Source: a virus
Strand: one strand, 5' to 3'
IMG/VR virus record: IMGVR_UViG_3300045988_165922
Location: 37,893-101,892 of that record
DNA length: 64,000 nucleotides
Below are positions 15,700 to 45,722 of the stretch, in pieces; the stretch's first letter is position 1, and the number at the start of each line of letters is the position of its first letter. Under the pieces are notes generated by a model. The model had not been told where the DNA came from, did not search any database, and saw only the letters and a program-made list of their open reading frames with translations. The translations under genes were made by a program, and so were the position numbers.

Positions 15700-15855
15700 C
15701 TTATCTCAAACAAGAATCTATTTTAAACCACTTCCGTTTAGGTCGTCAACCTCTACTCTCGACAAAGCTCGCCCATTATCGAACTTAACCTCTTGGTACA
15801 TGCTTTTTTAAAGTATTATACTTATTATAATTATTATAAAATCAAGGAAACAGAC
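15700..15855 (+). promoter_or_regulatory. low-GC promoter region of the ATPase moron
   Basis: AT-rich (tattatacttattataattattataaaatcaagg), unlike the flanking ~60% GC DNA. Confidence 0.4.
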
Positions 15856-17013
15856 ATGACCAACCCATTCAAACCAACCGCCGGACGTATCCCACCGATA
15901 CTCGTCGGACGAGAAGAAATCATCGAAGACTTCGACTATGCGCTGAAAGACGGTGTGGGAAGCCCCGGACGGCTGATGTTCCTCACAGGAGCCAGAGGAG
16001 TCGGCAAAACAGTCATGCTGGACACACTGGGAGAGCACGCCCAAAAACAAGGTTGGCAAATCTACAACGAAAGCGCCGACAAAGGCTTCACCCGAAGACT
16101 CGTGGACGCGCTCACCGGCAAGGACACCACCCGCATATCCGCATACGACATGCCCAAAGTAGGATTGAAAGGGGACGTCGGGAATCTTGAACTGAGCTTA
16201 GGGAGAATCGAACTCGAACATAATGAGGAACGTTCCCTGACACTCCGCCAAGCGGTCGGAAAACGATTGGACAAAATGAACGAGACCAAACAAGGAATCC
16301 TCATCACATTGGATGAGGTGCAGTCCGGTTCCATGGACGAAATCAGAGCACTGTCCACCGCAGTGCAGCATCTCATCCGGGAAGGACGGAACATCGCGTT
16401 CGTTTTCGCCGGACTGCCGTCCGCAGTGAACGACGTGCTGTCCGACAATGCCATCACTTTCCTGCAACGGGCGGAACGATACCATTTGGGGTCTGTCCCC
16501 ACGGAAAAGGTATTGAAGGCGTTCGAGGAATCCTTCAGCGGCGAGAAGAAAGCCGGAATGGAAACGCTGATACGGTTGACCAACGCCACTCACGGTTATC
16601 CGTTCATGATTCAGCTGGTGGGCTATTGGGCTTGGCGGATGTCCGAAACCAACGGTCATGTGAATCAAGTGACCGAGGAGGACGCGGTCAAGGGTATCGA
16701 AAAAGCCCAAGCCAAACTAGGGGATATGGTTCACGCCCCAGCATTGCATGGCTTGCCATCCCATGCGGTGAACTATCTACTTGCCATGTCGGTGGATGAT
16801 ACGGTGTCGAATACAGGTGAAATCGCCCGTCGGTTGAACCGTTCGCCACAGTTCGCCAACGTGTATAGAACCAAGCTGATTGAGAACGATTTGATTGAGC
16901 CGGTCGGTTACGGTGAAGTCGCTTTCAAAATGCCGTATTTGCGGGATTACTTGCGTGAGCATGGGGCTTATTTGCAGATGCGGGAGAATATCAGCGAACG
17001 CTCGGAGAACTAG
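15856..17013 (+). CDS. AAA+ ATPase of the archaeal-ATPase/ORC-like family with a C-terminal wHTH-like region
   Basis: Walker A GARGVGKT, Walker B ILITLDEV; ~385 aa; RBS AAGGAAACAGAC. Confidence 0.7.
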   Translation: MTNPFKPTAGRIPPILVGREEIIEDFDYALKDGVGSPGRLMFLTGARGVGKTVMLDTLGEHAQKQGWQIYNESADKGFTRRLVDALTGKDTTRISAYDMPKVGLKGDVGNLELSLGRIELEHNEERSLTLRQAVGKRLDKMNETKQGILITLDEVQSGSMDEIRALSTAVQHLIREGRNIAFVFAGLPSAVNDVLSDNAITFLQRAERYHLGSVPTEKVLKAFEESFSGEKKAGMETLIRLTNATHGYPFMIQLVGYWAWRMSETNGHVNQVTEEDAVKGIEKAQAKLGDMVHAPALHGLPSHAVNYLLAMSVDDTVSNTGEIARRLNRSPQFANVYRTKLIENDLIEPVGYGEVAFKMPYLRDYLREHGAYLQMRENISERSEN

Positions 17014-17120: not shown

Positions 17121-18128
17121 CTATCCCTTGTGCGTTTTCTCATACCATTCCACGAATCCCAGCATGGCTTGCTGGAATGATGGTTTGAATTCGCCGTTTA
17201 CGGGAATGTTTCGGTTGAGTGGCGTGGTCTTATAGTTTTCCGGTAAGGGTGTGGCGCACCATTCGGGTGGTATCCGGTCGGTGAATGGTTCCTCGCAATC
17301 GTCGCTGAACATGAGTCCTACCGGCTTGCCGTTGAGGAGGATTGTTGCGTGGGGGCTGATTTGTCCTTTCGCCAACCGGTATTCTCCTCTTGTCGTGTGT
17401 ATTGGATAGTGGAAGGTTTCAGGTAGTCCTCCCCGCCGGTATTCGTCGCGTAATAGTCGAATCGGATTATAGTAGCGTTCCAATGCGGGGTATGCCCATT
17501 CGCATCCGCTCCAACAGTCGCGTACCCTGTCCATTCCGTCCCAGTTTTCTTTCGGATTGGGTTGGATGCTGAGTTTGCGGTATCGGTCGGTTTGACACCA
17601 GCGGGCGGGATTGTTCAGGGCATAGTTCGGCGTGGTTTGTTCGGCTAACCGTATGAGAGTGCTGAGGGTGCATGAAGCATAATGTTGCTTGTCGTATCGT
17701 GCGACAAGCCGATACGGGTCGGCATCATCCTTGTTAAACACAGGCTTCAACACGCGTAAATGTTCCTCCGTTACGGGAATATCAAGGTCGGCTGGTAAAC
17801 CCAACACTTCCATCCAACCTCCAAGCCTGTTCGTATCCCACTTGTAATCCTTGCAGTATTGCGCTTGCAACAGCCAAACCATCCAACGGCGCACATTCCG
17901 CATCAGTACGGGATGGGACGCGAATTCGAGAGGACGCCCCAGCATGTCATGATTCACATTATCCGGCGTGGTAATACTGGTTCGATTACCGTACTCGTCC
18001 ACTGCCGTCACGACGATATTGTGTCCGGCGTCCACAGCCTTGAACATGTCGCTGATGTTGTCTTCCACGAACGTGGGCGGAATGAGACGCGACTGGACTT
18101 GACCATTAATCGGCACGGAGAGCATCAT
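17121..18128 (-). CDS. hypothetical protein, 335 aa
   Basis: ORF track; overlaps the upstream gene by ATGA. Confidence 0.55.
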   Translation of the reverse strand: MMLSVPINGQVQSRLIPPTFVEDNISDMFKAVDAGHNIVVTAVDEYGNRTSITTPDNVNHDMLGRPLEFASHPVLMRNVRRWMVWLLQAQYCKDYKWDTNRLGGWMEVLGLPADLDIPVTEEHLRVLKPVFNKDDADPYRLVARYDKQHYASCTLSTLIRLAEQTTPNYALNNPARWCQTDRYRKLSIQPNPKENWDGMDRVRDCWSGCEWAYPALERYYNPIRLLRDEYRRGGLPETFHYPIHTTRGEYRLAKGQISPHATILLNGKPVGLMFSDDCEEPFTDRIPPEWCATPLPENYKTTPLNRNIPVNGEFKPSFQQAMLGFVEWYEKTHKG

Positions 18129-18736
18129 TCACCATCCTCACTATTAGAGGCGAGTCGGGTTCGGAGTTCCCTCAACCGGCCTAACCGTTCCTCCACAGCC
18201 TGAATACGAACGTCAACCGCAGTCAACGTGTCACCATCCGGCTCAGACAACTCATACTTGCCGGACGACAGTCGTTCCAGAAAACTGGTGGGAACATCCC
18301 ATACCAATAATCGGAGTTTGTCGGGACTGAGATTCAACCCCGTATACAAGCCGGTTTTAGGCCACATGCCATCCACGAGAGCCACATTCGGCATCATGCG
18401 CGGTGGACGGTCGGGCTGATATTTTTCGACTAGGATTCGACCAGCGAACCAGATAATGTCGCTATCCTGCTTGGAGTACGCGTACAAGTAGTCGTAGGGG
18501 TTGATGGTGACTGTGACACGCTTTTCAGCGTCCACGCCCTTATGCCACCAGAAATATTTGTCTAAAGCTTCGAACACCAGCCTTTCCACACGCATATCGA
18601 ACGTCCAAGTCTTCAACTTGTCATCAAACGTTCCACCCAACGCGCGGGAGCGACGTGCGAACAACGGATTATACGGAGCCTTAACCTTCAAACGGACATC
18701 ACTGCGAGTGACCGTAATATCATCAAAACCTGCCAT
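18125..18736 (-). CDS. hypothetical protein, 203 aa
   Basis: RBS GAAAGGAAACTGTC-ATG. Confidence 0.55.
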   Translation of the reverse strand: MAGFDDITVTRSDVRLKVKAPYNPLFARRSRALGGTFDDKLKTWTFDMRVERLVFEALDKYFWWHKGVDAEKRVTVTINPYDYLYAYSKQDSDIIWFAGRILVEKYQPDRPPRMMPNVALVDGMWPKTGLYTGLNLSPDKLRLLVWDVPTSFLERLSSGKYELSEPDGDTLTAVDVRIQAVEERLGRLRELRTRLASNSEDGE

Positions 18737-19005
18737 GACAGTTTCCTTTCACTCAAACGGCATACTCTGACCAATGCGCTGATAACCTCTAAAGCCCCAC
18801 ATGGGCGAAGTCCCGAGGAAGGAAATGCAAGTAAACCCAGTGTAACACCAAGCTGGGAAGAAAAACTAGCCGACAAGCATGCCGAGTGAAATACGATACA
18901 ATCCAAGCCTCACGAAATCTCATCCAAACGATTGAGGAAGCGGAAGATTCTGCGCCACCGCTTCCAGCAGATTACACCCCTCCACCAATCTGGAAAGTCC
19001 GGAAA

Positions 19006-20235
19006 TCACGGGTGAAAAGCCAGCTTCCGCATTTCACAATGCCTCCGATACCACGCTTTCTCCCGAGCGCACAGTCCACGACGGTGAGTTAGACCCGACA
19101 GTGTGCTCTCATGGCTCGTCCAAGAATCCTGAACTGTCCGCAATCCCACATGCACGCCATCATATGAGCGGATAAGGTTACGCGCATGCCGTCGGCTTGC
19201 ACGCAACGCCTTATGGTGCATGCGGATAAGAATACTGCCGTCATCCTGTACGCTGTATACGCGTTTCAGGAATGTGAGTTGACCGGTGCGACAGTCCACT
19301 ATGCGGGTCTTGCGCTTGTTCAACCGCAATCCCAATTGATTGACATGCCGCTCGTAACCGGCCAGCACACGTTCGGCCTGTTCACGATTCTTGCAGAAAC
19401 AGTAGGCATCATCCATATACCGTCCGTAGAATCCTTGCGACATGCACCAGTGGTCAACCTTGTTCAAATACCAGATAGCCATGGTTTGGCTTGTCTGATT
19501 GCCTAAACCCAAGTGAGGTTCGTCCAATACGAAGATTCTCAATACGGTTAGAATCCGTTCCACATCCTGCTTCTCCCGTCCGGTGCGGGCGATGCTCCGG
19601 TACAGGGTGGAAATCATATCGAACGCTCGTTGGGAGCTGATACTTCCGAAATAGTTGGCACAGTCGAAGATGACAGCATACGGATGCTCCCATTTGCCCA
19701 AAGCCCGCTTATAGTGTAGTTCGAACCGTTTTCGGGCGAACGATGTTCCACGTTTCGGTAGGCTTGCCGCATTATCGTATATCAGTTGGCTTTCCACGAT
19801 GGGGACGAGACTGTTGTCGCATAAGGCGCGTTGCACCACCCGGTCTCGGAAGGATACCGCGCTGATGTGGCGGAGTTTGCCTCGTTCGGAAATGTCGAAT
19901 CGGATTGGCGCTCTCTTCTTGTATGTGCCGTCCTCTAATTCTTGGGCGAGTTTCCAACAGTTGACGGCACGCCTATTGTCGAAGTTCAACACTGTGTTTT
20001 TCCATGTGACGCCGCGTTTGCATTTTCTTGCGGCTTGGTAGAGCGCGTCGAATCCGAATGTTTGTTGGAAGTCGATGTAACGGTGGAGCTTCCTGTACTT
20101 ATCATCCGAGCGTTGTTGCAGTCTGCGTTGGCGTCTTCTACGTCTTTGACTCGCATTCACGATTTTAATGCTTCCTTCACTAGGGAAAGAGAAAAGAATG
20201 GTTGAGGGCAGGTCGTCGGCAACAACCCAAGACAT
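19006..20235 (-). CDS. reverse transcriptase, DGR type
   Basis: RT motifs SFRDRVVQRAL, FDCANYFGSI, YMDDAYCF (YxDD); motif 4 reads LGNQTSQ (the DGR-type I/LGxxxSQ in place of QGxxxSP); adjacent TR/VR pair; N-terminal start uncertain. Confidence 0.85.
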   Translation of the reverse strand: MSWVVADDLPSTILFSFPSEGSIKIVNASQRRRRRQRRLQQRSDDKYRKLHRYIDFQQTFGFDALYQAARKCKRGVTWKNTVLNFDNRRAVNCWKLAQELEDGTYKKRAPIRFDISERGKLRHISAVSFRDRVVQRALCDNSLVPIVESQLIYDNAASLPKRGTSFARKRFELHYKRALGKWEHPYAVIFDCANYFGSISSQRAFDMISTLYRSIARTGREKQDVERILTVLRIFVLDEPHLGLGNQTSQTMAIWYLNKVDHWCMSQGFYGRYMDDAYCFCKNREQAERVLAGYERHVNQLGLRLNKRKTRIVDCRTGQLTFLKRVYSVQDDGSILIRMHHKALRASRRHARNLIRSYDGVHVGLRTVQDSWTSHESTLSGLTHRRGLCAREKAWYRRHCEMRKLAFHP

Positions 20236-20429
20236 GCAATGATGTTGGACGCCCAGCTTAAGGGGCGAGTATCCGTCGTTTCCGACAGTCTTAATATCTC
20301 CCTCAACCTATTTCACACGCAACCCATTTTTCGAGGGGCCGCGCATTCGACCATATCCCCTTCCCCTTCGGGAGGCTTTCACCCATTGGGCTACTGGCCT
20401 ATCTGATGTTAGTTTTTGGTAAGAGGAAT

Positions 20430-20582
20430 CGGGGACAACGGAGTAGCGATTGTTGGCATTGTTGTTGTAGCTGGGGTCGCCGTTCGAGTTCACTTGGAGG
20501 AAATTGTTGTTGTTGTTCGGGTTGGGCGAACGCTCCCACCAATTGTTGTTGTTAGCACCAAGAGGAGTGGAACCGGAAACGG
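20430..20582 (-). repeat. DGR template repeat (TR), ~153 bp
   Basis: identical to the VR at 21228..21380 except at ~20 positions, 19 of which are TR adenines on the coding strand (AAC-rich). Confidence 0.8.
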
Positions 20583-20625
20583 TGTCACCATAGTTTGGAT
20601 ATGGCCGATTTTGTTCAATTATATT

Positions 20626-21141
20626 TTAGGCTTGCGCCCGAGTATCCATTATAGTGTTCGTTTTCGACTCGGCGTTTTTAGCTTTCTTCAACTGGTCTCG
20701 CTCATACTTGACGGCTCCGGTGAACACGCCCATCGCCTTGTAGAGGGTTCCCGCATAGTTCACGAATTTCTTCTCCTTGACGACGGGATTGTATCTGGGG
20801 TCGCCTTCCGGATATTTCCTGTAGGCTTCCAAGTCTTTTTCCCGTGGAGGAAACTCCATCCAATCGTCCACAAGACCGGAGAGTGAGTTCAGCATGCCTT
20901 GGGCCTTGCACAACAGTTGCAGTTTCATCTCATGCTCTTCTACAGTGCTTGCATAAATGATGTCGGCACTGTAGGCGGAGGAGTACATTTCGTAGGCGAT
21001 ATGCATGACATGCACGGTTTCAATGCAGTTACGGCTTTTAGGCCATTTGCGGAACAGATTTCTGGTAGCCAAGAGCACGATTCTGGCCTGATTCGCATAT
21101 TCGCTTTTGGCTTTTGTACGTTTGCTTGCGGGAACCGTCAT
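20626..21141 (-). CDS. Avd-like DGR accessory protein, 171 aa
   Basis: small basic protein between target gene and TR, where avd normally sits; RBS AAGGAG. Confidence 0.5.
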   Translation of the reverse strand: MTVPASKRTKAKSEYANQARIVLLATRNLFRKWPKSRNCIETVHVMHIAYEMYSSAYSADIIYASTVEEHEMKLQLLCKAQGMLNSLSGLVDDWMEFPPREKDLEAYRKYPEGDPRYNPVVKEKKFVNYAGTLYKAMGVFTGAVKYERDQLKKAKNAESKTNTIMDTRAQA

Positions 21142-21213
21142 AGGACTCCTTTTGTGTGAGATTTGAGTTTGGAGGGGTGGTGGGGATGAACCCCACCACC
21201 CAAGGATTGGGGA

Positions 21214-22146
21214 TTAGAAGGAGAAAGCGGGGACAACGGAGCAGCGATAGTCGGCACTGTCGTAGTAGCTGGGGTCGCCGTACGAGGTCACTCGGAGGAA
21301 ATAACTGTTGTAGTCCGGGTCGGGCGAACGCTCCCACCAATAGCTGTAGTAAGCACCAAGAGGAGCGGAACCGGAAACGGTCTTGTAGATGCCGGAGAGA
21401 ATGCTATTACCCGACCAGTTATTTGTCACCTTACCGTGGAAATACTCGTATTGGCTTCCCTCCTGATTCAACGCTTGGAAACCACCAGAGGTCTTCCAAC
21501 CATCGTATAAGGTTGGTACGAGTTCACGGTAGGAGACGAGCCATACTTTGTCTGCCGTGGCTGACGCGCTTGAACCGACTGTGCTTCCGTAGGCCATGTT
21601 GTTGGTTTGTTTCAGCACGGTTGTGACGTTGTTTTGGAAGTCGGTTGGGAATTGGTTCCAGATTTCACCATTGTTCATCTGATTGCGGAGAAGACTGTCA
21701 CGCCAGCCGCCATTATTGGTGTGACTATTGTTCATGGCATACGCTTTCGGTAACGCGTTCCAAGCCATGAACGTCAATCCTGCTTTTCGTCCACTTCCGT
21801 CGGCTTTGTCGTCGTGGAGGATGCCGATGAGTCGGAATGGGAGGTTCGAGCCGTCTGATAGGGTGAGCGTGCCTTTGACCCCGTCGGTCAGGTTCTTTTC
21901 CATTGCGGCATAGTATGTGCTTCCTTTGCCTTTCTCGCTTAAATCGTCGGCAATCTGTTTCAATCCCGCCGCGTTATAGCCCGCGTAGCAAACCTTGTCC
22001 ACGCCAGTATTGCATTTGGCTGGTTCGGCGGCTATTGCACTACCGGTGAGGAAGCCGCCGCAGACCGCGCTCATGATGGCGAGGGTGGCGAGGAGCCGCC
22101 GAACCATGTGACGGCTCCCGTGTGATTGTGTGGCGTGTTCGCCCAT
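21214..22146 (-). CDS. DGR target protein: secreted, with a C-terminal variable repeat (C-type-lectin-fold style)
   Basis: signal peptide MVRRLLATLAIMSAVCGG...; VR covers the last ~50 codons; start MGEHAT with RBS AAAGGA, 12 nt after the adhesin gene stop. Confidence 0.75.
   Translation of the reverse strand: MGEHATQSHGSRHMVRRLLATLAIMSAVCGGFLTGSAIAAEPAKCNTGVDKVCYAGYNAAGLKQIADDLSEKGKGSTYYAAMEKNLTDGVKGTLTLSDGSNLPFRLIGILHDDKADGSGRKAGLTFMAWNALPKAYAMNNSHTNNGGWRDSLLRNQMNNGEIWNQFPTDFQNNVTTVLKQTNNMAYGSTVGSSASATADKVWLVSYRELVPTLYDGWKTSGGFQALNQEGSQYEYFHGKVTNNWSGNSILSGIYKTVSGSAPLGAYYSYWWERSPDPDYNSYFLRVTSYGDPSYYDSADYRCSVVPAFSF
21228..21380 (-). repeat. DGR variable repeat (VR), ending 12 nt before the target stop codon
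   Basis: aligns with the TR; the 14-bp GC-rich identical block cggggacaacggag at its 3' end looks IMH-like. Confidence 0.8.
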
Positions 22147-22157
22147 TCTTGTTCCTT

Positions 22158-25100
22158 TCACTGTTCTTCCTTCTTTCGTAGGAGGATGATTGCCGCGACG
22201 AGTCCGCTGATGCTGACGAGCATGAGGAGCGGCAACAGCAATCCCATGCCCGTGTGCGGCATGGTCGCCAACCATGTTTCAGGCAGGACACCCGCATCCA
22301 CATGCTCCTTGGTTGGAGCATCTTGGGTGAGGGTGATGGTCAGCTTGTTGGCTTCATCCGTGTAAGCATCCGAATCAGTGGAGCTTCCATCCGCCGCAGG
22401 AGTCTTGTCTCCCACATCCGGCGTGGTGAAGTCCCGGTGGTTCACTTTGGTGAATTGGATACGGTATTTGTTGCCGTTCGCGTCCAGACGTTCGAAAATG
22501 TACTTGCCATCCTTGTCGGTCTTGGTGGTTGCCAACTGTTTGCCGTTCTCGTCAGTCAGAATGACCGTCTGACCGGCGAAATGCGTGTTCTCACCTTCAT
22601 CTTGAATGCCGTTCTTGTTGGTATCCTCCCAATACAGGCCGCTGATGGAACCGAGTTTCTTCGCGGTGGTGGTTGGTGTGATGATGGTGCCGACTTGGTC
22701 GCAGGAGTCCTCATCGGACGTGCTGAACCAGTGTTGGCGTCCTTCCTCCGTATAGTCCGTGTCGGTGCGGCATGTCGGATTGCCGGTCACATCATTCGTG
22801 TTGGCATCCAGTTTCGTAGCGTCCGGAGTGTTCGGCTTGTTTTTGCCGCTTGCGTGTGGCGTGCCCGAATATGGCGTGTGTTCGGAGTCGAACCATGCTT
22901 GGTTGAGAATGGTCTTCGTATTCTTCTTAACCCACTCGTCAATGTACGTCTGGTCTTTGCCCGTCATGTCAGCGGTCTCACGGTCAACTGTGCCGGTGAA
23001 ATGGTAGATGACATAGCCGCCCGGCTCAATCGAATACGGCAGATTGTACGTGCGGGTAGTCAACCCATTCTCAGTGGTTTCGCTCGATGGTTCGACAGGT
23101 ACGGCGGTCGGGTCGGACGAGACCGCCATACCCTTCAAACCGATCGAACGCGCGCCACCCGTCTTACCGTCACCATACGGGTCGAAGCCCGCAATCATGA
23201 CCTGCTTGCCAAGAATGAGCACGTCACGGTCACCGCCCGCCACGTCGGAGGCGATGATGCCCGTATCGACTGGCGTGCCGATGATGTCCGTGTTGTTACC
23301 GGTGGAGTCGTCCGTCCAATACATGCCGTTGCCGGTCTTGCCGTTCGCCAATTGTCCGTCACCATTCCAGCCTGAAGCCCACAAGTGTTGGTTCTTGTCG
23401 ATGGCGTACAAGGTCTGATAGCCGCCGCTGATGAGTGTGATGTCCTTCAGACTGGACACGTTGGGCGAATAGCCGTCGCGGTTCAGGGTGGCTACCGGTT
23501 GGACGGTGCCCGAATTGGTCAACGCGTATACTTGACCGAATGCGGCGGCCACCTGCATATAGCCGCTTCCTTTTGGGGTTAATGCGGTCGAAGCGCCCGC
23601 ATACAGGCTTCCGCCGTTCTTGGTCAATGCGATGAACGAGTCCATGCTTGCGCTGACTTGCGTGGATGTGACGGAGCTAATCTGGGTCAGACTCGTGTAA
23701 GTCTTGTTGCCAATGTTTCCCGTGGCCCACAGGGTTCCGTCACTGGCGATGGCGACGGTGAACTGGTTGCCGCATGCCACGTCCGTGAACGTCTTATCCG
23801 AAGCGACTTCCGTCCATTCGAAACGATTGTCCGTATCACCCGTACCCAATTGGCCTCTACTATTCCAACCGGTCGTGTACAGGTGTCCGTCCGTGCTGAT
23901 GGCGGCGGAATGTTTGCCACCGGCGGCGACTTTCAGCCAACTACCGTTGATGATGGTCGGCTTGTTCACGTTCACCGGAGTACTCGTGTTCGTGGAGTCA
24001 GGCTTGAAACCCAATTGACCATACTGGTTATTACCCCACGCATACAACAAGCCCTCATTCGTCAACACAAACTTATGGTCGCCACTCGTCGCAACCTGCT
24101 TCGCACCACCGGATTCAATACTCACAGTACCCGCCGTAGCCGTCACATCATGCACATCAGCACTCATACGGTCAGACACGACACTGGAAGTATCAAAACG
24201 AGACGTGCCGGAAGACTCAGTGGAAGTATCAGGAACAACCTGAACACCAGACTTCCAAACATGACCGTCGGAAACCAAAATCGGCGTGCTCTGGTCAGTT
24301 CCCGTGCCATCATGGTTATATCCCCATGTCCACAGGCGTCCGCCTGAATCCAAAGCCAGTCTTCCCTCTATTTGCGTAATTGTGACATCAGATTTAACCT
24401 TAATAGGAACATTTACGCAGGTATTCTCATACCCAATTCCTAATGAGCCGTGCTCATTGTTTCCCCATGCCCACCGGTGGCCGTCCGAATCTAAAGCAAA
24501 CGAGGATGAATCCCTCGCCGCAATCTGCGTGAACATGTCAGTAGAATAAACTTTAATCAGTAGGGGTTTTAAGCTGTTTTTATTAGAAGATACTCCAAGT
24601 GAACCGTAGTTATTCCACCCCCATGCCCATAGGTGACCTTCCGAATCCAAGGCGAGTGAATGCGCGCCGCCTGCGCTGACTTGGGTGAAGGTGGTGTCCG
24701 GTTTGACCTCGATAGGAGTGTTCCGGGCGGTGGTTGTTCCGTCTCCCAACTGGCCGGAACCGTTGCCTCCCCATGCCCATAGGTGACCTTCCGAATCCAA
24801 GGCGAGTGAATGCGCGCCGCCTGCGCTGACTTGGGTGAAGGTGGTGTCCGGTTTGACCTCGATAGGAGTGTTCCGGGCGGTGGTTGTTCCGTCTCCCAAC
24901 TGGCCGGAACCGTTGCCTCCCCATGCCCATAGGTGACCTTCCGAATCCAAGGCGAGTGAATGCGCGCCGCCTGCGGCAAATGTCTTCAGTGGTGGTACAC
25001 TCGGTGCCTTCTCGGTGCTCTTGCCCTTATTCTGCACCTTCACATCCCAGTTGATGACGCATTTTGTGTCCGTGCAATTGGTGCCGGTGACGGTTTTGTC

Positions 25101-28100
25101 TACGGTGGCTTTCAGGTCTGGTTTCGCGTAACCGTAGTCCACGTGGGTCTGGTTGATGCCGATACCTAGGTGGATGTCGTCGGACGTGTCTGTCGCGTTG
25201 GACTTGATTTTGTTAGACCAGCTGCGCGTGTTCGTCACGTCTTCCAATTTGCCGTAGTAGGTTTTGACTTGGGTTTGCACGCCGTCGCCCGTACTGGTGC
25301 CCGTATTGCGTTTCACCGAAGTCTTGTACGTGCCGGAGTGGAGCAGGTCGAACTCGTAATACCCGTCCTTGTCGGTTTTCACTGTCTTGACGGACTGCCA
25401 AGCACCATTCGCATCCTGCTTGCTGAGGATGACTTCCACGCCTTCGATACGTTCCTCACCATCTCCGATGAGCGTGTTCTCATCCTTATCCCACCAGACG
25501 GTACCGGAAATGCTACCGACGACGACGTTCGCCACGTCAGGCCATGGCTGGTTGCCTGCTGGCTTGCCTGCCGTGTCGGAATAATAGTTGCGGCCCAACC
25601 ATAGCGTGTACTTGTCGTCTTTCACATTGTCGGACGGGTTGAGCGTGATGGTGCCGTTCACTGCGGAATAGGATAGTTTTTCGTCGGATGCGACGACTGT
25701 GCTGGTCAGTCGGATGGCGGTGATGTTCTTCTTGTCCGAATCCGTCAACTTGTCCCATGTCTTCCACTCGTAGTCAGCCGGATTATCCGACTTCTTTCCG
25801 GTGGTGGTTGAATAGTAGACGGTCGTACTGGTCGAATTGTCCATATTGACCGTGATGGGCTGGGTCAGTTCGTAGGAGCCATGATAGTTGCTGTATCCAC
25901 GCTCATATTCGACCAGCTTGTCCTGCACGTACTTCTCATCACCATTCGCAGGAAGCAGTAGCATGCTATCCATGGTGCCGGTGTGACCGCCGCCCTTGCC
26001 GTACACGTTGAACTCCCAAGTAAGCGGGTCACCGATTTCAGCCTTCGTGGTCTTCACACGCATGATGCCACTGTTGGTTTCCGCATTGGAGACGGGGAAT
26101 GGGACGCTGGGCGTATTGCTTTTGATGGTTTGGGCTTGCAATGCGCCGTTCTCGTCAACGTCCACGCTCATATTCGCACTGGCGGTCACAGTCCCGGTGG
26201 CGAGATTGGATACGATGCCACTGAAATGCAGGTCAGGCAAAGTGGCCGACCCCATACGGTCTACTTCCGGCGTGACTTTGCCAGAACGTGGCGTGAACAC
26301 GAGATTATTCCCGTCCACTTTCATCTGCCAGAACGAATCATCACAGGTCGGATTGTACAAGCCTTTCGGTTTCGGCACCGTGATGGTCGGCGTCATGCTT
26401 GTATTGGACAGGAGAATGGTGCGCAACTGTTCCGTGACCGTATAATCCACTCGCATGCCGGGAGTCAAATCGACTGCGCTTCCGGACGGGTGATTGGAAC
26501 TGTTGTTCGCATACACTTGATTGCCTTCACCATCGTAGGCTTTCAGACTGATGTCGATACTGGTGGTCGGGTCTACCGGCTTGGCAATCCACACCCAATT
26601 GGTGACGCTCGCCTTATCGTCTTCGGTAAGCCATGCGGTCAGCGTATCCAAAGCTTCCACATTGCCTTTGGACACGTCGGCTATGGCGAGCGTGTTGAAC
26701 GTGACCTGAACGTTCGGCGCACCCTTTCCTAAAGTCAACGTGTCGGGGTTGAACGTCACCCGAATCTTCTTGACGTTCGGAGCGTCCGTGTCGGATGGTT
26801 CCCCGTCATGCCAATTGTCTTTGCTATCAGCCCATTGAACTTTGTAGTCGGAAACCGGAGCACCGTTCTGGGTGACTTCCAAGCTTCCATCCCACCGCAT
26901 GCGCGTATTATCCCACTCATCCTGCATGGTCGGCGTAGTGTTTTTAAGCTTGTCCGCAGTAACGTTCGCCGCATACATTTCCAAAATGGTTTTGACTTGC
27001 GTTCCACGGGACACGGTGTCGCCGGAACCGTCGGAATAGTAATGGTAGATGTCGGCTTTGCCTTCGGCGGCGTCGAACGTCAGATTCTCCTTGTCGAACA
27101 TGGTCTTGGACGCAGTGTTAGGACGTTGCAGTCCTTTGCCGAACAGTGGAATCTTGCCAGCTGGAGTCGGCTTGAGCCGTTGGATGATGGCTCGTGACCA
27201 GTCATTGTTCGCGTACGGGTAGCCGACGCGGGCACCCGTATCCTTGTTGTAGGTGCTCTTGTCCCGTCCAATGTTCCAGCCGGGTTCGCCGCCCTTGCCC
27301 ATGTTCAACAGTGCGTTGCCGTTATCGTCTTTGACGCTGAACACGGTTTCGTCGGGAACAAGGTGGACATCGTAATATTTGACGTCTCCTTCTTTCATGT
27401 TTTTGAGCGCGTCGGTTCCGGCGGGAATCCTGTAGCTGATTGTCGCCGCCGTACCGTTTTTGCCACTGGATACGGTCAAATACTGTTCTTTATCACTGTT
27501 ACGGGTAATCCTCTGACCGCCTACAGTCCACACGGTGCCCTGCGGGAAGTCGGAAATATCCACTTTGGTAGTCCAATCGATGCTGGTGGACGCGCCCTTC
27601 GTGGACGAATAACCCGGATAGGTCAACGCGTCGGTACGAATAGTGAAATCACCGGTCGCATCGGTGTTCTGACTCCAATAAGTACGATGCTCATACGAGT
27701 ATTGGCCTTTCACCGGATTGCCGCCATTGTCAATGACCAAGTCAGCCGCCGGAGCGGATACTACAGTCAGCTCATCCGTACGATACGTGGTTGACGTTCC
27801 ACCTTCGCGGGCGACGACGATTTTCGGAATCTGACCCGGCTTGACCAAGCCTCCCGTGTCTTTTGCTTTCAGATAGAAGGTTTGGGTCATGGTTTCCACG
27901 CCACCGGCTGGAACCGTGTAGGAGCAGGAGCCGTCACTGTTTTTCTTCGCGGTGACGAGTTGTCCCGGCTGGCAGAAGCCACCACCGTCAGCAGTCTGCA
28001 AATACGGCGCGTCATCCAAGTCGAACTTCACGTTGATGGTACGCTTGCCCGCCGCGTTGAAGTTCAACGTGAGAGAATATTCGACCGTATCACCGGATGC

Positions 28101-28358
28101 GACCACGCCATCGGTAGGGGAATCATCGCCCGTGGCGAACCCGTTCTTCGAATTCACGAACGTTTGCGAACTCGTGCCATGCCCCGTACCGTCGGCTTTC
28201 TTAACGATTTTCGCAGTAGCATATGCGGGTTTCAACTCGTCCGCATGCGCTTTCGGAGAGGCTACCGGATTGGTCATGCATATCAGGCCGGATGACAGTG
28301 TGGCGATTGCGGCCAATAATGCTACCGGATGTGCCACATGCTTTTTGAGAATACCCAT
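22158..28358 (-). CDS. giant sortase-anchored surface protein / putative pilus tip adhesin with RCC1 beta-propeller repeats and CnaB-like domains, 2066 aa
   Basis: signal peptide; HSLALDSEGHLWAWGGNGSGQLGDGTT RCC1 repeats; CnaB-like GKYIFERL / GYYEFDLL; C-terminal MPHTG followed by TM and RKKEEQ sorting signal. Confidence 0.8.
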   Translation of the reverse strand: MGILKKHVAHPVALLAAIATLSSGLICMTNPVASPKAHADELKPAYATAKIVKKADGTGHGTSSQTFVNSKNGFATGDDSPTDGVVASGDTVEYSLTLNFNAAGKRTINVKFDLDDAPYLQTADGGGFCQPGQLVTAKKNSDGSCSYTVPAGGVETMTQTFYLKAKDTGGLVKPGQIPKIVVAREGGTSTTYRTDELTVVSAPAADLVIDNGGNPVKGQYSYEHRTYWSQNTDATGDFTIRTDALTYPGYSSTKGASTSIDWTTKVDISDFPQGTVWTVGGQRITRNSDKEQYLTVSSGKNGTAATISYRIPAGTDALKNMKEGDVKYYDVHLVPDETVFSVKDDNGNALLNMGKGGEPGWNIGRDKSTYNKDTGARVGYPYANNDWSRAIIQRLKPTPAGKIPLFGKGLQRPNTASKTMFDKENLTFDAAEGKADIYHYYSDGSGDTVSRGTQVKTILEMYAANVTADKLKNTTPTMQDEWDNTRMRWDGSLEVTQNGAPVSDYKVQWADSKDNWHDGEPSDTDAPNVKKIRVTFNPDTLTLGKGAPNVQVTFNTLAIADVSKGNVEALDTLTAWLTEDDKASVTNWVWIAKPVDPTTSIDISLKAYDGEGNQVYANNSSNHPSGSAVDLTPGMRVDYTVTEQLRTILLSNTSMTPTITVPKPKGLYNPTCDDSFWQMKVDGNNLVFTPRSGKVTPEVDRMGSATLPDLHFSGIVSNLATGTVTASANMSVDVDENGALQAQTIKSNTPSVPFPVSNAETNSGIMRVKTTKAEIGDPLTWEFNVYGKGGGHTGTMDSMLLLPANGDEKYVQDKLVEYERGYSNYHGSYELTQPITVNMDNSTSTTVYYSTTTGKKSDNPADYEWKTWDKLTDSDKKNITAIRLTSTVVASDEKLSYSAVNGTITLNPSDNVKDDKYTLWLGRNYYSDTAGKPAGNQPWPDVANVVVGSISGTVWWDKDENTLIGDGEERIEGVEVILSKQDANGAWQSVKTVKTDKDGYYEFDLLHSGTYKTSVKRNTGTSTGDGVQTQVKTYYGKLEDVTNTRSWSNKIKSNATDTSDDIHLGIGINQTHVDYGYAKPDLKATVDKTVTGTNCTDTKCVINWDVKVQNKGKSTEKAPSVPPLKTFAAGGAHSLALDSEGHLWAWGGNGSGQLGDGTTTARNTPIEVKPDTTFTQVSAGGAHSLALDSEGHLWAWGGNGSGQLGDGTTTARNTPIEVKPDTTFTQVSAGGAHSLALDSEGHLWAWGWNNYGSLGVSSNKNSLKPLLIKVYSTDMFTQIAARDSSSFALDSDGHRWAWGNNEHGSLGIGYENTCVNVPIKVKSDVTITQIEGRLALDSGGRLWTWGYNHDGTGTDQSTPILVSDGHVWKSGVQVVPDTSTESSGTSRFDTSSVVSDRMSADVHDVTATAGTVSIESGGAKQVATSGDHKFVLTNEGLLYAWGNNQYGQLGFKPDSTNTSTPVNVNKPTIINGSWLKVAAGGKHSAAISTDGHLYTTGWNSRGQLGTGDTDNRFEWTEVASDKTFTDVACGNQFTVAIASDGTLWATGNIGNKTYTSLTQISSVTSTQVSASMDSFIALTKNGGSLYAGASTALTPKGSGYMQVAAAFGQVYALTNSGTVQPVATLNRDGYSPNVSSLKDITLISGGYQTLYAIDKNQHLWASGWNGDGQLANGKTGNGMYWTDDSTGNNTDIIGTPVDTGIIASDVAGGDRDVLILGKQVMIAGFDPYGDGKTGGARSIGLKGMAVSSDPTAVPVEPSSETTENGLTTRTYNLPYSIEPGGYVIYHFTGTVDRETADMTGKDQTYIDEWVKKNTKTILNQAWFDSEHTPYSGTPHASGKNKPNTPDATKLDANTNDVTGNPTCRTDTDYTEEGRQHWFSTSDEDSCDQVGTIITPTTTAKKLGSISGLYWEDTNKNGIQDEGENTHFAGQTVILTDENGKQLATTKTDKDGKYIFERLDANGNKYRIQFTKVNHRDFTTPDVGDKTPAADGSSTDSDAYTDEANKLTITLTQDAPTKEHVDAGVLPETWLATMPHTGMGLLLPLLMLVSISGLVAAIILLRKKEEQ
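24600..24975. repeat. ~2.5 tandem, near-identical 150-bp DNA repeats, each encoding one 50-aa RCC1 blade
   Basis: copies start at about 24621, 24771 and 24921 and are essentially identical at the DNA level. Confidence 0.8.
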
Positions 28359-29263
28359 TAGTGTTCCTTCTTTGCGTGGTTTTTTCTACGGATGATGAGA
28401 ATGGTGATGATGATTACCGCAAGCCAGAAGCCGCCGACGTACAGTATGAGCCATTGGTTCGTGTGGTCTTTCGGCGCGTTTTCGGGTCTGGGTGCGGGGT
28501 GCGGCATGCTGGTGCGCGTGCCGGTCACTAGGAGTCGCTTGTTGTTGATGCCGTATGGCGTGCAGGTTAGGAGTGTGGCGAGGTCTTTTCCGGCGACGAT
28601 TTTCAGTTTGGTGAAATCGGATGGGTCTACCACATCAATGCTTGTGACCTTGTAGGCGAGCGTATGTCCGGCGGTTATCAGATAGAAGACGTCACTTTTT
28701 TTGGCTTCACTGCCGAAGCCTCGTAGCTTGTCGAACATGAGCTGGTCTGCCAAACCCGTGTGCGCGGATATGACAGTATGCGTGTTCTTGCCGCCGACGG
28801 GGAGACTGGAACCATATAAGTGTCCGGCTCCAGCGGCCAACACGTTTTGCGACGTGCCATGCCGGATGGGCAGGTTGATGCCCAAGCGTGGATATTTGAT
28901 GGTGGCCATGACCCCATCCTTGGGGGTGGATAGTTGCTTCCGATACGTGTTGTCCGTTTCGGACTTGTTGACGCCTGTCCAAGGGTCTTCCGCCTCACCA
29001 AGAATGGGCTGGCCTTCCTCGTATAGGCGTTGATTGTAGGCTTGCGCGTCCGCATACTCTTGGGCGATTCGTTTCACGTCAGTGTTTTCCACGGCTTGCG
29101 CGTGGGAGTCGGTCAACCGGTTGGATTGGCTGCTGTTCGAAATCATGAGAATGAATGGGATGGTTCCGGACAGGGCGGATAGGATTAGGCAGAGAAGTCC
29201 CGCTATGGCTCGATTTCCCAAGCCTTTCGGTTTCGCCGTATGTTTTCCCAAAACCCCTCCCAT
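28358..29263 (-). CDS. class C (pilus-specific) sortase
   Basis: TLLTCTPYG catalytic motif, conserved His and Arg, C-terminal TM; stop overlaps the adhesin ATG (TAATG). Confidence 0.8.
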   Translation of the reverse strand: MGGVLGKHTAKPKGLGNRAIAGLLCLILSALSGTIPFILMISNSSQSNRLTDSHAQAVENTDVKRIAQEYADAQAYNQRLYEEGQPILGEAEDPWTGVNKSETDNTYRKQLSTPKDGVMATIKYPRLGINLPIRHGTSQNVLAAGAGHLYGSSLPVGGKNTHTVISAHTGLADQLMFDKLRGFGSEAKKSDVFYLITAGHTLAYKVTSIDVVDPSDFTKLKIVAGKDLATLLTCTPYGINNKRLLVTGTRTSMPHPAPRPENAPKDHTNQWLILYVGGFWLAVIIITILIIRRKNHAKKEH

Positions 29264-29398
29264 GCGGTTATAAAGAATCTAAAAGGTGTCGTGTCGATAT
29301 TTGGGTTCCCGACACGACAAGCGGAACATTTCATGCTTTTCCAACCGTCAAACGGTCAGAAAAGTTTTCTCATACGGCAGTATTCCAATCTTCCAATC

Positions 29399-31093
29399 TC
29401 ACGCCTTGCGACGAAGCAGCAGGGCGGAAGCGCCAGCCAACAGGACGGTCATCACGCCGAAGATGGACAGCCAGACCGCACCGGTCTTCGGCATGTCAGC
29501 GATGTTGCGGGCGTTGATGACGGTCACACCCATCTTGTCAACGTTCTCGGAAGCCAGATTGTTGGCGTCCTTATCGAACTGGCTGAGCATGTAGGAGCCG
29601 TTCGACTGGTTCACCTTGATGGTCAGGGTGAACTGCGGCAGGATGGAGCCGTTGAACGGACTCTTTGTCTCCTTGACCGTGTACTTGCCGTCGAGGCCGG
29701 TCAGCGTGAGCACGCCATTGCTAGTAGCGACGCTGGTGACGGTGTCGGTGGTGCCGGTGCTCTCGGTCAGGTCGGCCTTGCGGTAGGTCAGGCCGTCGGA
29801 GGACTTGACGAACCTGACCGGGGTGGTGGTCTGGTCGCCCTCGTACACCTTGAACTCGGCTCCGGCGAGCGGAGCGTTGTTCGTGTCGTGCTTGGTGAGG
29901 GTGAACTTGCCGACGTACACCTTGTCGGTCTGGCCCGGGGTGGTCTCATGGTCGGTGACGGTGTTCGGATTATGCGAGTATTCGACCTCGTTGGTGTTGG
30001 CGTCGGCGGTTCCGGAGACGGCGTTCTTGTTCACGTACATGCCGTACTTGACGTCAACGGCGGCATCGACCGGGAACTTGGCTTTCATCGCCACAATGTC
30101 GGATGTGGTGGTGGAGTCACCGGTGGTCGGAGCGAAGATGATGTGGAACTTGCCATCCTCAGTAGTGACCTTGTAATCGGTGTCGCAGATGAGGGTCTTA
30201 CCGTCCACGGTCACGACCATGTTGTCCTTGGCCGCGTCATAAGTCAGGCCCTTGGAATACGTATCGTTGATGGCGTAATAGTACTTGTCGTAGCCAGTCC
30301 AGTTCGGCACTTTGCTGGTCATTTCGAAGCTGACCTTCTTGCCGATAGCGGTTTCGGCGGTCGCGCCACTGTTTTCGACGGTGCCGTTTTCGGCGGCGGT
30401 AATCTTCTTCGTGACGGTGGTGCCGTGTACCTTATAGTCCACGGTGCCCAGCGTGTAGGTCTTGGCGCCGTTCTTCAACGTGGTCTTGCCATCGATGCCG
30501 GTGCCGTTGAACATGACGATGGACGCCTGACCGGTCTTGGTGGTGTCCACGACCGCGTACACGCCCGGACGGACAGAAGCGGTCATATGCTTGGCGTCGG
30601 TGCCCTTGGCGAACGCGGTGCCCTTGTCGCCGATGACAGCGGCCTCGTTCTTCAACTGGTCGATGAAGTCACGAAGCTTGCCAGCCCACGGACTGTTCTC
30701 GGAATCAAGGAGATTCTGCACGACCCACACCATCGGATTGGACGCATTATAGTCGTATCCGGCAGTCTGGTCTTTCTTGGACTTAGTGTCAATACTGGCT
30801 TTAGTCAATGCGTCAGCAATAGCAGAAGCCTTGCCCGCGTCAATCAGGTCAAAGCCGGTAATATTAGTACCATCAGTCTGCGCATACGAATAGTAGGCGA
30901 GCGGCACAGCCTTCAACGTGCGATTGCTAATATCACCATTAGCAGCGACGGTCAACGTCTGACGAGCAGCCGCATCAAACTTGGATGCGTCAACACGAGT
31001 ATCAGCCGCCATGGCGGAGCCGACTCCAGCCAAACCCATGGCACCGGCCACAAGCGTGGCGACCGTTGCCTTCAACAGGTTTTTGGTTTTCAC
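29399..31093 (-). CDS. sortase-dependent pilin backbone subunit, 564 aa
   Basis: signal peptide; E-box-like YTVKETKSPFNGS; C-terminal MPKTG + TM + RRKA; GTG start with RBS AAGGAAAG. Confidence 0.7.
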   Translation of the reverse strand: MKTKNLLKATVATLVAGAMGLAGVGSAMAADTRVDASKFDAAARQTLTVAANGDISNRTLKAVPLAYYSYAQTDGTNITGFDLIDAGKASAIADALTKASIDTKSKKDQTAGYDYNASNPMVWVVQNLLDSENSPWAGKLRDFIDQLKNEAAVIGDKGTAFAKGTDAKHMTASVRPGVYAVVDTTKTGQASIVMFNGTGIDGKTTLKNGAKTYTLGTVDYKVHGTTVTKKITAAENGTVENSGATAETAIGKKVSFEMTSKVPNWTGYDKYYYAINDTYSKGLTYDAAKDNMVVTVDGKTLICDTDYKVTTEDGKFHIIFAPTTGDSTTTSDIVAMKAKFPVDAAVDVKYGMYVNKNAVSGTADANTNEVEYSHNPNTVTDHETTPGQTDKVYVGKFTLTKHDTNNAPLAGAEFKVYEGDQTTTPVRFVKSSDGLTYRKADLTESTGTTDTVTSVATSNGVLTLTGLDGKYTVKETKSPFNGSILPQFTLTIKVNQSNGSYMLSQFDKDANNLASENVDKMGVTVINARNIADMPKTGAVWLSIFGVMTVLLAGASALLLRRKA

Positions 31094-45270: not shown

Positions 45271-45697
45271 GGAATCATTCCAACAGACACAGGACGCGTT
45301 GGATGTAGCAAGATTGGAACGTGCGCGGGCTTTGCAACAGGTTCAGACATTATGTGAGACGGGACGTAGACATTTGGTCATTCCGTTTCTGATGGCGAAC
45401 ATGCAACGTGTTCCCGCATTACGGAAGATACGACTCTGGCAGTTGGATTCGATAATGTTCAACACTTCCCGGCGGATTGCGAACAAAACAATCCGCGTCA
45501 TGCGTGAAACCATCAACGATGATTCGAGTGTGAACGATGGTTACGTGACATTGGGTTGGGCGTTGGAGTCGAAGGAGAAAACCGTCCGGATGACGACGTG
45601 GCTTCTCCAATTGTCGTTACGTGAGAGGCTTTCCACTTTCCAGAAGCCGGAAGGTTTCCCATACGCGCAGTTGTATCAGCAGAGCACGGATGATTAA
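45257..45697 (+). CDS. hypothetical protein, ~146 aa
   Basis: start MVSTEE with RBS GGAAAGGA; alternative upstream start at 45221. Confidence 0.4.
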   Translation: MVSTEESFQQTQDALDVARLERARALQQVQTLCETGRRHLVIPFLMANMQRVPALRKIRLWQLDSIMFNTSRRIANKTIRVMRETINDDSSVNDGYVTLGWALESKEKTVRMTTWLLQLSLRERLSTFQKPEGFPYAQLYQQSTDD

Positions 45698-45722
45698 ACA
45701 AAAAAGGAAAGGAAGGTAAAAC

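Follow-up and report, generated by a model that had tools for sequence, protein, structure and literature searches.

With tens of thousands already in catalogues, diversity-generating retroelements (DGRs) are a well-understood kind of system, and finding another is hardly remarkable in itself. In the DGR of Bordetella phage BPP-1, a temperate phage, the components are arranged in the order mtd-avd-TR-brt and the target is a tail-fiber-tip protein. Avd, the accessory variability determinant, belongs to a four-helix-bundle family (23S rRNA IVS, Pfam PF05635) and forms a pentameric barrel to which RT and the DGR RNA bind. It is 128 amino acids (aa) long in BPP-1, the spacer measures 144 nt, and the hairpin has 8 bp and GAAA. 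More generally, phage DGRs have a target-recognition hairpin, formed by an inverted repeat rich in GC that lies 4-34 bp past VR and has a 7-10 bp stem and a 4-nt GRNA loop (Guo et al. 2011, PMC3240598). In Faecalibacterium phages Lelie, Roos, and Pioen, phages nd4 and nd12, and Roseburia phage Shimadzu, the targets contain DUF6273, a described DGR target domain with a C-type-lectin-like fold (PMC10743442, PMC11792537), and VR has been reported at the C-terminal end of this domain (PMC11792537). Bacteroides ICE-borne DGRs diversify type V pilus adhesins (Macadangdang et al., bioRxiv 10.1101/2024.11.15.621889), and the same work notes an Actinomycetota DGR group that is enriched in infants and uncharacterized. 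In Bifidobacterium, prophage DGRs have only been suspected so far (PMC8705816), and we found no paper describing a DGR on a Bifidobacterium megaplasmid in the literature searched.

The window, i.e. the whole 64-kb stretch of DNA that we analyzed, encodes a target with its VR, an accessory protein, TR, a spacer, and a reverse transcriptase (RT), all on the minus strand. All parts are present and intact, with gene order and strand as in BPP-1, which bears out the complete DGR proposed by a sequence-only reading of this DNA. We consider it highly probable (roughly 90%) that this is a complete BPP-1-type DGR residing on a large pMP7017-related Bifidobacterium plasmid. The two systems share adenine-specific differences in AAY codons, a GC-rich block followed by TR- or VR-specific sequence, and a GC hairpin after VR. 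They differ in carrier, which here would be a plasmid of a Gram-positive actinobacterium, and in target, here a DUF6273 protein that has a signal peptide and is secreted. Dimensions also differ, because the spacer here is 194 nt with a further 43-nt gap between the accessory stop codon and TR, the accessory protein has 171 aa and no detectable sequence similarity to Avd, and the hairpin pairs 11 bp around a 5-nt TTCAT loop.

The RT gene (19006-20235) is an undisrupted ORF, as the sequence-only reading had it, and encodes a protein of 409 aa with an Arg-rich N terminus, a LGNQTSQ motif, and a YMDD catalytic box. The protein matches Pfam RVT_1 (E 7e-13) and the phrog_1423 reverse transcriptase family (E 5e-56), and its best match among PDB sequences is the BPP-1 DGR protein bRT (8ub7_A, E 8e-13). 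When aligned with bRT, the two motifs noticed earlier fall into register, LGNQTSQ on IGSLTSQ and RYMDD on RYMDD. Overall identity with Brt is 29% (E 4e-17), with xGxxTSQ and YMDD common to both. These features, xGxxTSQ in place of the QGxxxSP of group II together with YMDD, place the RT by its sequence among DGR-clade RTs, and every NCBIfam model for group II intron, retron, or Drt enzymes scored far below its cut-off. The nearest annotated relatives are the DGR RTs of Roseburia and Faecalibacterium phages, those of gut Firmicutes phage DGRs with DUF6273 being 26-33% identical, and avd-linked RTs on cyanobacterial plasmids.

TR (20430-20582) is 153 nt long, contains 42 adenines, and has 17 AAY codons in the reading frame of VR. 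VR (21228-21380) forms the 3' end of the target ORF, i.e. the last 51 codons ahead of a C-terminal tail. On the minus (coding) strand the two align without gaps over 153 positions, at an offset of 798 nt and with 20 mismatches, 19 of which fall at TR adenines (A>G 10, A>T 8, A>C 1). The pair, its coordinates, and the division of the mismatches estimated earlier thus proved exact upon precise alignment, and the C, A, or G then read in VR agrees with T>C, T>A, and T>G on the plus strand. Considering that only 42 of the 153 nt are adenines, the restriction is highly significant (hypergeometric p = 9e-12); the sole exception is a C>T change at TR 20506. A repeat finder run independently identified the same pair (D1, 168 nt, 85% identity). 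Mismatches concentrate at the first two positions of AAY codons, with 13, 6, and 1 at codon positions 1, 2, and 3, respectively. VR contains 25 variable codons, including 17 AAY, and no adenine substitution can produce a stop codon, so that re-randomization could yield about 1e25 possible peptides with stops impossible. A search with TR that ignored adenine positions recovered only 21228-21380, with no second VR in the window.

The two repeats share an identical 14-nt GC-rich block, cggggacaacggag, at 20430-20443 in TR and 21228-21241 in VR. The block seen in the sequence-only reading is therefore real. Homology had also been said to stop beyond it; similarity does fall off, but gradually, fading over 14-18 nt (10/18 match) as far as the target stop codon. 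The diverged flank of TR, resembling IMH*, occupies some 14 nt (20416-20429), whereas the VR-specific flank (21214-21227) reaches the stop codon. On the 3' side of the block, TR and VR each continue with a sequence of their own, and this difference is fixed across all 17 cassettes compared (see below). The organization is consistent with an IMH/IMH* arrangement, but G and C make up 64% of the block and not the whole of it.

Twelve nt past the target stop codon and 26 nt beyond the shared block lies a candidate hairpin/cruciform with a GC-only stem, GGGTGGTGGGG-TTCAT-CCCCACCACCC (21175-21201). Folded as DNA, it is more stable than expected (z -4.2), with an equal or better fold in 0/200 shuffles. 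Related loci have four sequence versions of it, in which compensatory changes keep a stem of 8-12 bp and the TTCAT loop is constant. Its position and GC-only stem agree with the phage hairpins of Guo et al. 2011 (PMC3240598), but the stem is 11 bp long and the 5-nt loop departs from the 4-nt GRNA consensus. The non-coding spacer between TR and RT (20236-20429, 194 nt) probably corresponds, by analogy, to the Sp part of the DGR RNA. It is 96.9-99.5% identical to the window in seven cassettes and almost invariant in the 17-cassette alignment, which leaves too little variation for covariation analysis. Its identity is 99.5% even in a lineage whose target and accessory gene are only 75 and 81% identical, respectively. 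As RNA, the spacer does not fold significantly better than shuffled sequences (z -1.3), and neither Rfam families at gathering thresholds nor tRNAs were found across the whole window.

The accessory gene (20626-21141) encodes a basic protein of 171 aa (pI 9.4) predicted to form a four-helix bundle with an Avd-like fold. The sequence-only reading had called it Avd-like, and its small size, charge, canonical avd position, and predicted fold agree with this, whereas sequence and profile similarity to Avd were not found. The top Foldseek match is an Avd-family structure, at weak E-values (0.03). No Pfam (including PF05635) or NCBIfam model matches the protein, phmmer and a profile of its family detect no PDB sequence, and HHalign of this profile against BPP-1 Avd returns a probability of 0.2%, a weak test because the template is a single sequence. 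Because these sequence and profile tests were all negative, we apply the name Avd only in respect of fold, position, and charge. As modeled, the protein is a sequence family of its own, Avd-like in predicted fold only. That it is no Avd homologue at all, but an unrelated helical protein occupying the Avd slot with a convergent or generic likeness, we regard as rather unlikely.

Three other DGR-type cassettes (L025, L027, and L029) have homologues in this slot, at 24-26% identity, and two of these cassettes, L025 and L029, show clear adenine specificity. The family is rare and found in Bifidobacterium, Gordonibacter, and at least one unclassified Eubacteriales genome bin. A scan of genome contigs gave only a partial, distant match in a Eubacteriales MAG (L006), in which tblastn found no RT.

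The target gene (21214-22146) encodes a protein of 310 aa with an N-terminal signal peptide and a DUF6273/C-type-lectin-like domain. A longer version of the ORF, back to 22275, is likewise open. In this long ORF, residues 172-352 match Pfam DUF6273 (PF19789, E 1e-14), and VR encodes the last ~55 residues of the target, at the C-terminal end of the domain. Structure prediction, which the sequence-only reading had named as a check on the target, gave a C-type-lectin-like fold. Domain, fold, and C-terminal VR are thus as in the gut phages listed above, whose targets are of the tail/tentaclin type in genomes of 30-60 kb; here, by contrast, a stand-alone secreted target is found with an adhesin/pilus operon on a plasmid of ~200 kb. 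Close homologues of the target carry Bifidobacterium protein names. We considered a lipoprotein N terminus by eye and rejected it: the residues ahead of the Cys do not read as a lipobox, and farther on comes an AxA site for signal peptidase I.

Upstream of the target and outside the DGR proper (22158-31093), Pfam identifies a SpaA-type pilin (29399-31093), a sortase (28358-29263), and a giant RCC1/SdrD_B repeat protein of 2066 aa with a C-terminal membrane anchor (22158-28358), whose gene ends 11 nt ahead of the target start. The order giant RCC1 protein, small target, accessory protein, TR, and RT recurs in the distant DGR L027. The target is most likely a variable ligand-binding module, and would work with the upstream sortase-dependent pilus and giant RCC1 adhesin in adhering to host or partner-cell surfaces. 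Because it has no LPXTG or wall-anchoring motif, its link to the operon is one of gene order only, recurring in one distant relative. The Bacteroides ICE DGRs (10.1101/2024.11.15.621889) offer a parallel, with a conjugative-type element, a human gut commensal, and an association with pilus or adhesin genes in both cases. They differ in phylum, in pilus (type V versus sortase-dependent here), in the fold family of the target, and in that the target here is no pilin and bears no sorting signal.

Gene content indicates that the carrier is a large (~200 kb) Bifidobacterium plasmid, distantly related to pMP7017, and not a phage. Seven backbone proteins are syntenic with pMP7017 at 47-59% aa identity, and the common backbone includes DnaB, a ParA/CobQ-like protein, and proteins of 398, 158, 886, and 1343 aa. 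Backbone order and size class (184-217 kb contigs here) resemble those of the pMP7017-family conjugative megaplasmids of Bifidobacterium breve and longum, and a B. pseudocatenulatum assembly (GCA_020526265.1) contains the same target neighborhood on a 184,862-bp contig. At the nucleotide level, in contrast, megablast of 17000-41000 against plasmids found no match, and where pMP7017 carries a type I-E CRISPR-Cas system beside dnaB the window has a Band7-pilin-sortase-RCC1-DGR block. Megablast of the cassette against phages was likewise negative. A tblastn search of PLSDB with the RT yielded no Bifidobacterium record among the matches listed, and the pMP7017 transcriptome paper mentions no RT or retroelement.

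Could the DGR instead reside on a ~200 kb bacteriophage and allow it to switch tropism, as BPP-1 does, by diversifying a receptor-binding protein? In IMG/VR this element is filed as "viral" contigs 105-217 kb long, gut phages have the nearest annotated RT relatives, and targets of the DUF6273 type are characteristic of gut phages such as those of Faecalibacterium. Against this, besides the backbone synteny with a conjugative megaplasmid, no family of capsid, portal, terminase, or tail proteins turned up among the scanned ORFs of the window (64 kb of roughly 200 kb), the target is preceded by a pilin-sortase-adhesin operon and begins with a signal peptide, and one family member adjoins T4SS coupling-protein genes. 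We therefore consider a phage carrier very unlikely.

Comparison with 16 related metagenomic cassettes (17 with the window) bears on whether a BPP-1-type DGR has been at work on these plasmids. The 17 cassettes contain 15 distinct VRs and 10 TR versions. Over 14 distinct VRs, 267 of the 273 TR/VR mismatches are at TR adenines. In each of 16 cassettes, window included, adenines account for 88-100% of mismatches (p 1e-8 to 1e-18). Some VRs have one to two non-adenine mismatches. Non-adenine substitutions in TR recur in the cognate VR. The closest comparison is with L008, from which the window differs at 24 of 3,270 nt; 22 of these 24 differences are inside the 153-nt VR, and 20 of the 22 are at TR adenines. 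These findings support recent turnover of VRs by apparent TR-to-VR homing at the level of the lineage, and they supply from related copies the kind of evidence that the sequence-only reading had looked to population sequencing for. The earlier claim of active mutagenic homing thus stands for the lineage, as judged from related cassettes, and not for the individual window copy.

The window cassette might be a recently inactivated relic, once active in the lineage, whose TR is no longer mobilized. Loss is frequent, because RT and TR have been removed by three independent deletions in related plasmids, and the system is dispensable, as several relatives lack RT in this way; truncated accessory genes in some relatives and the one non-adenine mismatch in VR point in the same direction. 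However, all ORFs of the window cassette are intact, with YMDD and LGNQTSQ present, copies with different VRs match it at 99-100% identity in RT and spacer, and the IMH-like block and hairpin are preserved, which makes a relic distinctly improbable. Direct repeats of this size can come from duplication, but the chance that this pair arose by simple duplication of part of a gene, followed by divergence through point mutation or gene conversion without retroelement activity, is close to nil, since the mismatch spectrum already refutes it, TR is conserved while VR varies, and a DGR-clade RT adjoins the repeat.

For the preferred reading, a complete BPP-1-type DGR, each biochemical step can be proposed by analogy. 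An RNA spanning TR and the conserved 194-nt spacer would be bound by RT together with the basic helical accessory protein. RT would copy TR into cDNA, misincorporating specifically opposite template adenines, and this cDNA would replace VR at the 3' end of the target gene. Transfer may extend 3' as far as the shared GC-rich block, the flanks beyond it, which are particular to TR or VR, may give it direction, and the GC hairpin may aid homing. The expected outcome is a secreted lectin-like protein with 25 re-randomizable codons in its C-terminal binding surface.

What this locus contributes is a clear-cut DGR, evidently active in recent times, on a pMP7017-like megaplasmid from Bifidobacterium, which has a central part in colonization of the infant gut. 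Its accessory family is missed by current Pfam and NCBIfam models, and annotation pipelines that require Avd would score such cassettes as incomplete. The conserved gene-order link between target and sortase-pilus/giant RCC1 operon hints at variable adhesion in Gram-positive bacteria, parallel to the pilus-adhesin DGRs of Bacteroides. A further-reaching view, which we hold to be unlikely, is that the accessory protein represents a separate unmodeled DGR accessory family, either an extremely divergent Avd or an independent replacement, and that the variable lectin attaches to the pilus assembled by sortase, or to the giant RCC1 adhesin, encoded on a conjugative megaplasmid. If so, the plasmid could re-tune which host glycans or recipient cells are bound, and Gram-positive gut commensals would have a variable system for adhesion or mating specificity that is encoded on a plasmid. 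Sister plasmids with independent RT/TR deletions provide natural controls for VR dynamics.

Downstream of RT, two ORFs (18125-18736 and 17121-18128) are co-deleted with it in three lineages; we dropped them as candidate DGR parts because they are not conserved beside RT in the distant DGRs L025, L027, and L029. Promoter and terminator consensus scans gave no more matches than expected from shuffles, and one terminator-like site was seen after RT, at 18870-18885.

Ungapped alignment of the template repeat (TR, 20430-20582, minus strand) with the variable repeat (VR, 21228-21380, minus strand), which lie at an offset of 798 nt, reveals 20 mismatches over 153 positions and zero gaps. Nineteen of these fall at TR adenines (A>G 10, A>T 8, A>C 1), the sole exception being a C>T change at TR 20506, and the restriction to adenines is highly significant (hypergeometric p = 9e-12, with 42 TR adenines). 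The same pair was recovered independently by a repeat finder. The sequence-only reading, which had aligned the repeats by eye and proposed a complete diversity-generating retroelement (DGR), was correct in its coordinates, mismatch counts and motifs. In the VR reading frame, the mismatches are distributed 13:6:1 over codon positions 1, 2 and 3, and 17 of the 25 adenine-bearing TR codons are AAY. No substitution of a TR adenine can create a stop codon, and ∼1e25 peptides are possible. TR and VR are identical over their final 14 nt (CTCCGTTGTCCCCG, coding strand). The homology had been thought to stop beyond this GC-rich block, but it decays gradually, with 10 of the next 18 positions matching. 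No further VR was found within the 64-kb window.

Look-ups with the accessory protein of the cassette returned 5 metagenomic and 16 IMG/VR loci, of which 16, together with the window, gave 17 alignable cassettes. Metagenomes in which the element occurs include ERR11473797, ERR14038272, and the IMG samples 3300029653 and 3300029338. All were scored except L015, whose VR and TR are unequal in length. The 16 scored cassettes each display 14-26 TR/VR mismatches, 88-100% of which are at TR adenines (p 1e-8 to 1e-18), and across 14 distinct VRs this amounts to 267 of 273 mismatches (A>G 149, A>T 106, A>C 12). The 17 cassettes contain 15 distinct VRs versus only 10 TR versions. L008, a cassette of the closest clade, differs from the window at 24 positions over 3,270 nt, 22 of them inside the VR (20 at TR adenines). 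The two cassettes match at 100% in the TR, in the accessory gene, and in the target outside the VR. Where TRs differ between lineages at non-adenine positions, the same bases are present in the cognate VRs. In addition, the TR-specific and VR-specific sequences directly 3' of the GC block are fixed across all loci, and probably mark the 3' limit of information transfer. Taken together, these comparisons show, as judged from the cassette sequences, that the VR has been rewritten in this lineage repeatedly, recently, directionally, and with adenine specificity. The earlier proposal of active homing is thus supported at the level of the lineage, with the cross-cassette comparison serving as an in silico stand-in for the population sequencing that the sequence-only reading had suggested.

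Several minor features of the repeats were seen. A>C changes are under-represented at TR adenines across the 14 distinct VRs, and 4 of the 42 TR adenines (VR 21332, 21320, 21292, and 21248) match the TR in all of them, which may stem from a bias of the RT or from selection. In L015, the VR (about 5760-5925 of that locus) exceeds its own TR by 3 nt, or one codon. Simple TR-to-VR copying does not generate such an indel. This VR also has the lowest identity to that of the window (79%).

Twelve nt past the target stop codon there is a hairpin (21201-21175, minus strand) with a GC-only 11-bp stem and a TTCAT loop, which has a z-score of -4.2 when folded as DNA. Across related loci the hairpin sequence comes in four versions, whose stems measure 8-12 bp; changes in one arm are compensated on the opposite arm, and the loop is invariant. 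This is consistent with the previous finding that stem structure, not stem sequence, matters for the DGR hairpin (Guo et al. 2011, PMC3240598). Phage DGR hairpins have a loop with a 4-nt GRNA consensus (Guo et al. 2011, PMC3240598), whereas the TTCAT loop falls outside it, which makes this non-consensus yet covarying hairpin a point of interest. The 194-nt spacer between TR and RT (20236-20429, minus strand) has no significant predicted fold and zero Rfam matches at gathering thresholds.

The reverse transcriptase (RT) gene (19006-20235, minus strand) encodes a 409-aa protein that matches Pfam RVT_1 and phrog_1423, a phage RT family. Of all solved structures, the DGR RT of Bordetella phage BPP-1 matches it best (8ub7_A, E 8e-13), and in this alignment LGNQTSQ lies opposite IGSLTSQ and YMDD opposite YMDD. 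It shares 29% identity with that enzyme, Brt. Among annotated proteins, those closest to it are the RTs of DGRs in Roseburia and Faecalibacterium phages, together with RTs encoded by cyanobacterial plasmids; of the plasmid-borne RTs, the best (H1) adjoins an annotated avd (accessory variability determinant) gene. Group II intron, retron, and Drt models all scored far under their cut-offs. As in the BPP-1 DGR, the gene order is target/VR, accessory, TR, spacer, and RT, and the accessory protein has a pI of 9.4, in agreement with the suggestion of a small basic gene in the canonical avd position. Both in its architecture and in its behaviour, the element follows the textbook DGR pattern.

The accessory gene (20626-21141, minus strand) encodes a 171-aa protein with zero matches in Pfam, NCBIfam, or PDB sequences, and a search of 1.84 billion representative proteins yielded only 30 relatives. 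Its AF2 model (best of five, pLDDT 76) is a helical bundle. Similarity to BPP-1 Avd was not found by HHalign, in a weak test of the family profile against a single-sequence template. A profile search identified distant members at 24-26% identity, and in the three loci looked up (L025, L027, and L029) the family gene is flanked by a VR-bearing gene on one side and an RT on the other. In L025, from Gordonibacter (GCA_030077735.1), 16 of 16 TR/VR mismatches are at A, the target is a ∼1000-aa LRR_5+DUF6273 protein, and a Flg_new-repeat gene separates it from the accessory gene. L029 has 22 of 23 mismatches at A, and T4SS coupling-protein and TrbL genes after the RT. L027 has 17 of 25 at A, and there a giant RCC1/SdrD_B protein is followed by a small target, the accessory gene, the TR, and the RT, as in the window. 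Because this arrangement is found in all three distant loci, the protein represents a dedicated DGR accessory family that is absent from current family library models, and of interest for that reason. By origin, it may be an Avd that has diverged strongly, or else an analogue.

The analysis shows the parts of the cassette, an adenine-specific TR/VR relation, turnover of the VR at the lineage level, and a hairpin conserved in structure. By analogy with BPP-1, the RT and the accessory protein would both bind a TR-spacer RNA, its reverse transcription would be mutagenic at adenines, and the cDNA would replace the VR. The 3' boundary of transfer would fall within the GC block, with help from the hairpin further downstream.

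The target (21214-22146, minus strand) is a 310-aa protein with a DUF6273 domain. Published work has recognised this domain as C-type-lectin-like and as a target of DGRs, in which the VR occupies the C-terminal end of the domain (PMC10743442, PMC11792537). As judged by eye, the protein starts with a signal peptide, and it carries no sortase signal of its own. Its gene is the final one of a block that also encodes a Band7 protein and, directly upstream of the target on the minus strand (22158-31093), a SpaA-type pilin, a sortase, and a wall-anchored 2066-aa RCC1/SdrD_B repeat protein. The giant protein has exact tandem repeats around 24570-24980, and a size of 1792-2066 aa across loci. From the predicted lectin-like fold, which would offer a ligand-binding surface, the signal peptide, and the gene neighbourhood, we infer that the variable protein is most likely an adhesion/recognition module acting with the plasmid pilus and the giant adhesin. 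This conserved link of a DGR to a Gram-positive pilus/adhesin operon is of interest, and parallels the pilus-adhesin DGRs of Bacteroides (10.1101/2024.11.15.621889).

A target homologue with 86% identity is found in Bifidobacterium pseudocatenulatum, on a 184,862-bp contig of GCA_020526265.1, and other close homologues are in B. moukalabense and a Bifidobacteriaceae isolate (NCBI names). The closest relatives of the window DnaB, at 52-53% identity, are encoded by the B. breve conjugative megaplasmid pMP7017 and by B. longum plasmids of 184-198 kb. Seven backbone proteins show 47-59% identity to pMP7017 proteins, with their order kept; the backbone genes (31275-53450, e.g. 32724-34064, 42863-48383, and 49419-53450) encode DnaB, ParA/CobQ-like, and 398-, 158-, 886-, and 1343-aa proteins. 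The corresponding region of pMP7017 is without the Band7-pilin-sortase-RCC1-DGR block. No phage structural families or hallmark genes were found among the scanned ORFs of the window. Judging from these 64 kb, we conclude that the carrier is a distant pMP7017-like megaplasmid. The same element is listed in IMG/VR as viral, on contigs of 105-217 kb, a label that is probably wrong. A Bifidobacterium megaplasmid as DGR carrier is unreported in the literature searched, and is of interest in itself.

Sister plasmids have undergone three independent deletions, each of which took away the 3' portion of the accessory gene along with the TR, the RT, and some 4 kb beyond (window-equivalent 16965-20983 in L023/L024, 15727-21028 in L022, and 15619-20892 in L021), leaving orphan VRs. 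One RT/TR-deleted sister is the B. pseudocatenulatum assembly. The downstream DNA lost in this way includes an AAA_16 gene and two overlapping ORFs after the RT (17121-18736, minus strand; 203 and 335 aa, the first matching phrog_18108). The cassette is mosaic in one lineage (L018-L020), where at the nucleotide level the RT and the spacer share 99.3-99.5% identity with the window, versus 90% for the TR, 81% for the accessory gene, and 75% for the target. These identities imply either recombination with a breakpoint inside or close to the TR, or an exchange of the RT module between lineages.

The STAND/AAA_16-type ATPase gene (15793-17013, plus strand), which adjoins the two ORFs, is present in some sister plasmids and missing from others, and IS605 OrfB/TnpB insertions lie close to this region in L002 and L023. 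Near the right end of the window, a GmrSD C-terminal-domain protein (58459-59484) and an N6/N4 DNA methylase (62137-63093) are encoded, which may be plasmid defence or anti-restriction cargo.
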